33,289 bases of DNA from a virus: UHGV virus genome UHGV-0088025, one strand, 5' to 3'. Shown in pieces: positions 32,744-33,289 of the stretch. Under the pieces are notes generated by a model. The model did no database searches, was not told the origin of the DNA, and saw nothing but the letters and a program-made list of their open reading frames with translations. Numbering within the stretch: position 1 is the first letter of the stretch; every line of letters begins with the position of its first letter. The translations under genes and the position numbers were made by a program.

Positions 32744-32915
32744 TTTTCGTGTCTTTAATGAATCAAAAGCTGTTTCCAACAATCTTTCGCGTTTCAAGAT
32801 GTAACGGCTAAAATCTGTCCTACAGGCTTGCAAGCCCCACTAAATCTAATCCCGCCAAATCCCGAATAATCCAATGTCCTCCCGGTTTTTTTCGTACTTC
32901 AAGTGAATCAATACA
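32744..32915. other. attL: attL: left-end transposase binding sites L1 (32889-32910), L2 (~32785-32806), L3 (32744-32765) and terminus ...CA at 32915
   Basis: L1 and L3 match the MuA end-site consensus TGNTTCAYTNNAARYRCGAAAA on the - strand (TGATTCACTTGAAGTACGAAAA, TGATTCATTAAAGACACGAAAA); L2 is a weaker match. Confidence 0.9.
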
Positions 32916-33289
32916 CTCATGCCACGGTGATCACCCGCGAGAATGGCGTCTTTTGCGGCAAACGCTGGGTTGAAGAGGTGTTTATTCAACTGGCAGGCGA
33001 CGATGTCACCATAATCTGGCATGTGGATGACGGCGATGTCATCAATGCCAATCAATCCTTGTTCGAACTTGAAGGCCCATCCCGCGTGCTGTTAACGGGC
33101 GAACGCACTGCGCTTAATTTTGTGCAAACCCTTTCAGGAGTTGCCAGTAAGGTACGCCACTATGTCGAATTGCTGGAAGGCACCAACCCGCAGTTGTTGG
33201 ATACGCGCAAAACCTTACCCGGCCTGCGTTCAGCTCTGAAATACGCGGTACTTTGCGGCGGCGGAGCGAATCACCGTCTGGGGCTTTCT
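32916..33289 (+). CDS. nadC: Host nadC (quinolinate phosphoribosyltransferase), 3' portion only; 5' part severed by the prophage insertion, 3' end beyond window
   Basis: Translation from 32918: [124 protein letters not shown], matching enterobacterial NadC from about residue 56. Confidence 0.93.

Follow-up and report, generated by a model that had tools for sequence, protein, structure and literature searches.

The window, a 33,289-nucleotide stretch filed as UHGV virus genome UHGV-0088025, contains a D108-like Muvirus prophage whose left end is joined directly to the coding sequence of the host gene nadC. The arrangement is very probably the outcome of a simple insertion of a D108-type Mu-family phage into nadC, which would have separated the codons of the gene and abolished NadC. 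The prophage occupies positions 1–32915 (minus strand) and is collinear with D108, minus its right-hand ~3.8–4.3 kb. The phage map is reversed, running from right to left, and the window begins within the invertible G segment. From 32916 to the window end at 33289 (plus strand) lies the 3′ portion of nadC, from nt 167 (codon 56, position 2) to nt 540 (codon 180), where the window cuts it.

The position of the phage terminus was established by several comparisons. The whole of window 31600–32915 can be aligned with D108 (GQ357916) 1316–1, at 99.1% identity, so that D108 base 1 corresponds to window position 32915. We also built a nine-sequence alignment of D108, the window and seven lysogens, covering the final 356 bases of the phage and the 20 that follow. 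The phage columns are invariant up to ...CAATACA except for two, at both of which D108 alone differs, and divergence begins at the base after ...CAATACA, with a different host region in each sequence. Together with the MuA-binding sites described below, these matches fix the left end at 32915 to the base. The sequence-only reading had placed it at exactly this position, which is confirmed both as D108 base 1 and as the common endpoint of sibling lysogens. The prophage left end, ...GTGAATCAATACA, terminates there, and the plus strand at the junction reads ...cttcaagtgaatcaataca|ctcatgccacggtgatcacc... (longer: ...ttcgtacttcaagtgaatcaataca|ctcatgccacggtgatcacccgcgag...), with the break after 32915. 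The non-coding left end, attL (32577–32915, minus strand), corresponds to D108 1–339 and is conserved to its last base in the nine-sequence alignment. It ends in the terminal 5′-TG...CA-3′, and its reverse complement begins TGTATTGATTCAC....

The left end carries clustered MuA transposase-binding sites next to this TG...CA terminus. Site L1 (32889–32905, minus strand) is a perfect match to the consensus YMYNWRAARYRCGAAAR and coincides with the site annotated at D108 11–27, while L3 (32744–32760, minus strand) has one mismatch and coincides with the site at D108 156–172. At a stringency of ≤1 mismatch, the window contains 3 matches to the consensus vs 0.33 expected by chance. A probable L2 site lies at 32784–32800 (minus strand) with two mismatches, both in the first two degenerate positions; matches at two-mismatch stringency are not above chance by themselves, and its position agrees with that of Mu L2. 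The third one-mismatch match, at 30095–30111 (minus strand), falls within the transposase gene and is probably fortuitous, given the 0.33 matches expected per window and the assignment of the other two to L1 and L3.

Beside the left end, the gene content is that of a Mu-type phage, with A, B and the divergent c and ner genes in D108 gene order. The c repressor (32052–32576, plus strand; 174 aa) is of the D108 immunity type, corresponds to D108 c and matches Pfam HTH_Tnp_Mu_1 (3e-51). It is oriented toward the junction and the nadC fragment, in the same direction as the nadC sense strand, and its exact protein occurs in 4190 blocks of the assembly collection. The ner gene (31645–31866, minus strand; 73 aa, Pfam HTH_35) corresponds to D108 ner. 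Transposase A (29649–31637, minus strand; 662 aa) is a DDE enzyme matching Pfam HTH_Tnp_Mu_1, HTH_Tnp_Mu_2, DDE_2 and Mu-transpos_C. The assembly collection lists its exact protein in 95 blocks; at the 10 places shown, the left end adjoins different host genes. The transposition protein B is encoded by a 312-aa ORF (28672–29610, minus strand) that corresponds to D108 B; the 312-aa gene at the equivalent position in the 100%-identical siblings matches AAA_22 and Phage-MuB_C.

By its sequence, the prophage is D108-like and not Mu. Its left end, c, ner and A are 99.1% identical to those of D108 (GQ357916 / NC_013594), a Muvirus with which the window is collinear over 782–24586 (96.6%) and 26010–32915 (98.3%). 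The two share the lengths of the repressor (174 aa) and Ner (73 aa) and the positions of the transposase-binding sites. They differ in the early region, where 24587–26009 is replaced, and in the variable part of the G segment (1–781), which is without a D108 match. Mu itself (AF083977 / NC_000929) resembles the window phage in having a DDE transposase A with B, the terminal TG...CA and sites L1–L3, and it is ~97% identical to the window, but only from Mu position 1519 inward; its outermost 1.5 kb (c, ner and the 5′ end of A) has no match. Because identity to D108 is 99.1% over the outer 1316 bp and Mu aligns only from 1519, the immunity region is of the D108 type. SfMu was 85.9% identical in the comparison of the D108 and Mu immunity regions. 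The earlier assignment to a Mu-type element was thus upheld and made more precise: the phage is of the D108 immunity type and not Mu itself.

The two regions that depart from D108 were also inspected. In the G segment, two alignment pieces overlap at 741–822, where the inverted repeat lies. Window 1–822 is in the opposite orientation in three related lysogens (L012, L015, L017) and in the same orientation in another (L016), and the lack of a D108 match at 1–781 means that the variable tail-fibre part differs. The early-region module at 24587–26009 stands in place of D108 genes 12–14 (about 1.4 kb). It includes a 138-aa ORF on the opposite strand (24617–25033; phrog_585, function unknown, no Pfam match), a 231-aa ORF with a Cys-rich C-terminus (25308–26003; phrog_6418, function unknown) and a 108-aa ORF (phrog_1988). 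One lysogen, L029, has a different ORF set at this position, and the module could be a moron or accessory cassette.

On the host side, the sequence-only reading had proposed that in-frame nadC codons follow the phage terminus from about 55 residues into the protein, and had suggested aligning 32916–33289 to a reference nadC. That alignment, against MG1655 nadC nt 167–540, is ungapped, in frame and identical at 373 of 374 positions. The insertion point lies between nt 166 and 167, within Ser56 (T|CT), so the estimate of about 55 residues was accurate. The same flank matches annotated nadC in 5425/5426 complete E. coli genomes (E = 0). Its translation from 32918 equals NadC residues 57–180, ending ...NHRLGLS, and matches Pfam QRPTase_N (profile positions 15–82; 7e-18) and QRPTase_C (1.9e-15), as well as residues 56–178 of the Salmonella QAPRTase 1qap (2.4e-68).

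The fragment is without the promoter, the start codon and the first 55 codons of the gene; at this locus, the first 166 nt of the 297-codon gene are replaced by phage DNA. Read backwards from His57, the nadC frame meets a stop codon at a distance of 16 codons. The single in-frame start upstream of the fragment, GTG at 32903, is not preceded within 20 bases by a purine-rich, Shine-Dalgarno-like stretch. With this stop and a GTG lacking an obvious ribosome-binding site, a full-length or functional product is not expected. The chimeric frame 32903–33289 (plus strand) reads VNQYT from the phage end and then NadC from His57; automated gene calling may list it as a shortened nadC whose N-terminus is false. 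Nor should the insertion be strongly polar, because ppdD is a separate gene 203 bp downstream of nadC.

The sole difference from MG1655 in the flank is an A-to-C substitution at 33188 (plus strand; nadC nt 439), which gives Thr147Pro. Over 32916–33289 the best-matching complete E. coli genomes reach 99.7% identity and none 100%, and full-length K-12 NadC with T147P was absent by exact look-up from a 15-billion-protein collection. A sequencing error, a rare polymorphism and the onset of decay in a dead gene are all possible explanations. We also considered it as a change of a conserved catalytic residue and draw no conclusion to that effect, as the position aligned to Thr147 varies (T/C/A) among solved QPRTases.

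The host pentamer adjoining the left end, CTCAT (32916–32920, plus strand; nadC nt 167–171), is the predicted copy of a 5-bp target-site duplication. Mu prefers targets of the form N-Y-(G/C)-R-N. In phage orientation, CTCAT reads ATGAG and fits N-Y-S-R-N, as do 16 of 22 distinct insertion sites of this phage (the nadC site included) vs 12.5% expected (binomial p ~1e-10).

These other sites come from sibling lysogens, which were retrieved by exact-protein look-up of the window's transposase A and gp47. Seven of them (L022, L023, L024, L027, L028, L030 and L031) are 100% identical over window 19649–32915, and an eighth, L016, is 100% identical over 1–12933. The siblings AARNTR010000001.1, DBBPAW010000009.1 and DBBPDN010000002.1 are identical over the stretches compared and share the same termini. 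Their insertion sites differ, however: the ymjA/sapA intergenic region, the vicinity of aspC, citG, moeA, dcuC, otsB and others, with none in nadC. More than 20 different host flanks adjoin the same phage left or right end, as expected of an element with no att site. Where both ends are available, the 5-bp duplication is exact in 3/3 siblings: AACGG in DBBPAW010000009.1, TCGGT in DBBPDN010000002.1 and CCTCG in AARNTR010000001.1.

The same phage, with 0–1 mismatches over 13.3 kb, is thus found at many chromosomal sites (L022–L031, L012–L016) in separate public assemblies, which suggests that this D108-like lineage has recently been, and is actively, spreading or transposing. Several of the sibling assemblies fall in the neighbouring accession series GCA_0449xxxxx. 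Beyond the region covered by the window, three siblings, L016 (15713–16729), L012 and L015 (100% or 99.98% identical over 1–12933), are without D108 35614–36265, a deletion of about 650 bp that spans the 3′ end of gin, com and the 5′ part of mom. They keep a 171-aa Gin and the D108-specific gp56 (148 aa), and their right terminus is ...CATGAGCCGGCTCA in place of ...CGTGCGCCGCTTCA. The orientation of the G segment varies among siblings despite the truncated Gin. One could further imagine that the nadC hit is a lasting natural knockout, and no recent chance event, made by this spreading lineage (sequence-identical at eight or more chromosomal sites in public assemblies), kept because of gut niacin or a benefit of a block after quinolinate, with Thr147Pro as its first decay; we regard this extension as improbable.

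These data are best explained by a MuA/MuB-mediated transposition that hit the coding sequence of nadC in an E. coli (or Shigella) chromosome. The phage terminal CA-3′ at 32915 would have been joined to the nadC sense strand, splitting the promoter and the first 55–56 codons from the remaining 241 codons (up to codon 297). The prophage right end would lie 3796 bp beyond the window start, as in L016, or 4320 bp beyond it, as in D108, distances that agree with the earlier estimate of about 4 kb upstream. At the right junction, the nadC 5′ piece is predicted to end ...GAAAATTCTCGCTCTCAT (...TCTCGCTCTCAT) and to be followed by the prophage right terminus, in one of two variants, TGAGCCGGCTCA... 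or TGAAGCGGCGCA... (also given as TGAGCCGGCTCATGAAAAGCG... or TGAAGCGGCGCACGAAAAACG...); ampD and ampE would lie on the far side of the nadC 5′ piece. A second copy of CTCAT is predicted at this other junction, in line with the exact 5-bp duplications of three sibling lysogens. The upstream piece would end at once, as a 57-residue peptide, since TGA opens both known right-end variants and would directly follow ...TCT CAT. The downstream piece, being without a native start, would yield no NadC (quinolinate phosphoribosyltransferase).

NadC converts quinolinate to nicotinate mononucleotide. The gene is normally single-copy, as a single match to the flank was found in each of 5425 complete E. coli genomes, and we assume that no intact nadC stands elsewhere in the source genome. 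With NadC lost, the de novo NAD pathway would be blocked and the cell would have to salvage nicotinate, nicotinamide or NAD; the lysogen is therefore predicted to be a nicotinate/NAD auxotroph. In a comparable case, the clean ΔnadC mutant of BW25113 fails to grow on M9 unless NA, NAM or NAD is supplied (PMC3923242). No terminator-like site was found between c and the junction, so repressor transcripts may enter the nadC fragment; no effect of this is expected without a usable start. We accordingly rejected read-through from c as a source of working NadC, given the 55–56 missing N-terminal residues and the lack of an obvious ribosome-binding site at GTG 32903.

Natural NAD auxotrophy through nadA/nadB lesions is found in E. 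coli and Shigella, and carries the same expected nicotinate requirement. In Shigella, nadA/nadB have been lost. In E. coli NC101, a nadA point mutation is reported to cause a nicotinate requirement (PMC8207962). The nadA/nadB auxotrophs arose by point mutations or IS elements, whereas the lesion in the window is a prophage insertion at nadC. A block at nadC falls one step after those at nadA/nadB, and quinolinate would still be made.

Other origins of the junction were weighed against simple insertion. Rearrangements are a known product of replicative transposition in Mu-family phages, and the junction might be one end of such an event (an adjacent deletion, an inversion or a replicon fusion between two prophage copies), in which case the other end would lie away from the nadC 5′ piece, CTCAT would not be duplicated and nadC would still be broken. 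Some E. coli do carry two D108-like left ends (e.g. UMNF18, at 2 places), and the window includes the left junction alone, with 374 bp of host DNA. Yet all three sibling lysogens with both ends are simple insertions flanked by exact 5-bp duplications, and the window gives no hint of a second copy, which makes a rearrangement unlikely here. Less likely again is an origin of the join in misassembly or in a minority molecule; a partly induced culture, for instance, might have contributed a transposition product to the consensus, with the resident prophage elsewhere and nadC intact in most cells. Mu-type phages do form many new junctions during lytic growth, the host flank is only 374 bp long and the junction is absent from all collections searched. 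Against this, the join falls on the canonical terminus to the base and the flank is in perfect nadC register, which is atypical of a random mis-join; minority junctions seldom prevail in a consensus assembly; and the window does not start at a repeat-induced contig break, because its first base falls within the G segment, 740 bp past the inverted repeat.

Simple insertion could also hold and leave the strain prototrophic, if a second functional nadC were present in the genome or on a plasmid. Three of the 5425 nadC matches do lie on plasmid records, but each of the 5425 complete genomes has one flank match only. The interrupted fragment itself is unlikely to complement, because 55 residues of the N-terminal domain are gone and QRPTase_N is matched only from profile position 15. 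We consider such a rescue extremely unlikely, the least probable of these alternatives.

The nadC::prophage allele is unrecorded in the collections searched. No place in 5426 complete E. coli genomes covers ≥80% of a query spanning the left junction (32600–33289), and an exact 36-mer across that junction is absent from viral_contigs, genome_contigs and metagenome_contigs, as is a degenerate 36-mer for the predicted right junction that allows both right-end variants. Exact-protein look-up returned no record of the junction-spanning 69-aa ORF, and the predicted 57-aa NadC N-fragment and four possible C-fragment products were absent from the 15-billion-protein collection by exact look-up. Among the matches listed, look-ups of the c repressor, gp47 and transposase A gave only lysogens at other sites, and a literature search for nadC with a Mu-like prophage found nothing relevant, its one E. 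coli hit using 'NADC' for an institute. That the allele is unrecorded is expected, since Mu-family phages insert nearly at random.

The kind of event is already known: a D108-like Muvirus acting as the Mu family does, with a phage sequence that is itself present in public assemblies. Near-random targets, a 5-bp duplication and insertional inactivation of host genes are the features of the classic Mu-induced auxotrophs, which were products of laboratory mutagenesis, whereas the window, so far as the data show, holds a prophage sequenced in an isolate. In annotation, nadC of this genome is best treated as a prophage-split pseudogene, and the prophage is best labelled D108-like, not Mu. The strain is likely a nicotinate auxotroph, which would bear on the choice of minimal medium and on metabolic models. 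Put in a broader context, the insertion would be one further example of the oldest known form of phage-mediated insertional mutagenesis.
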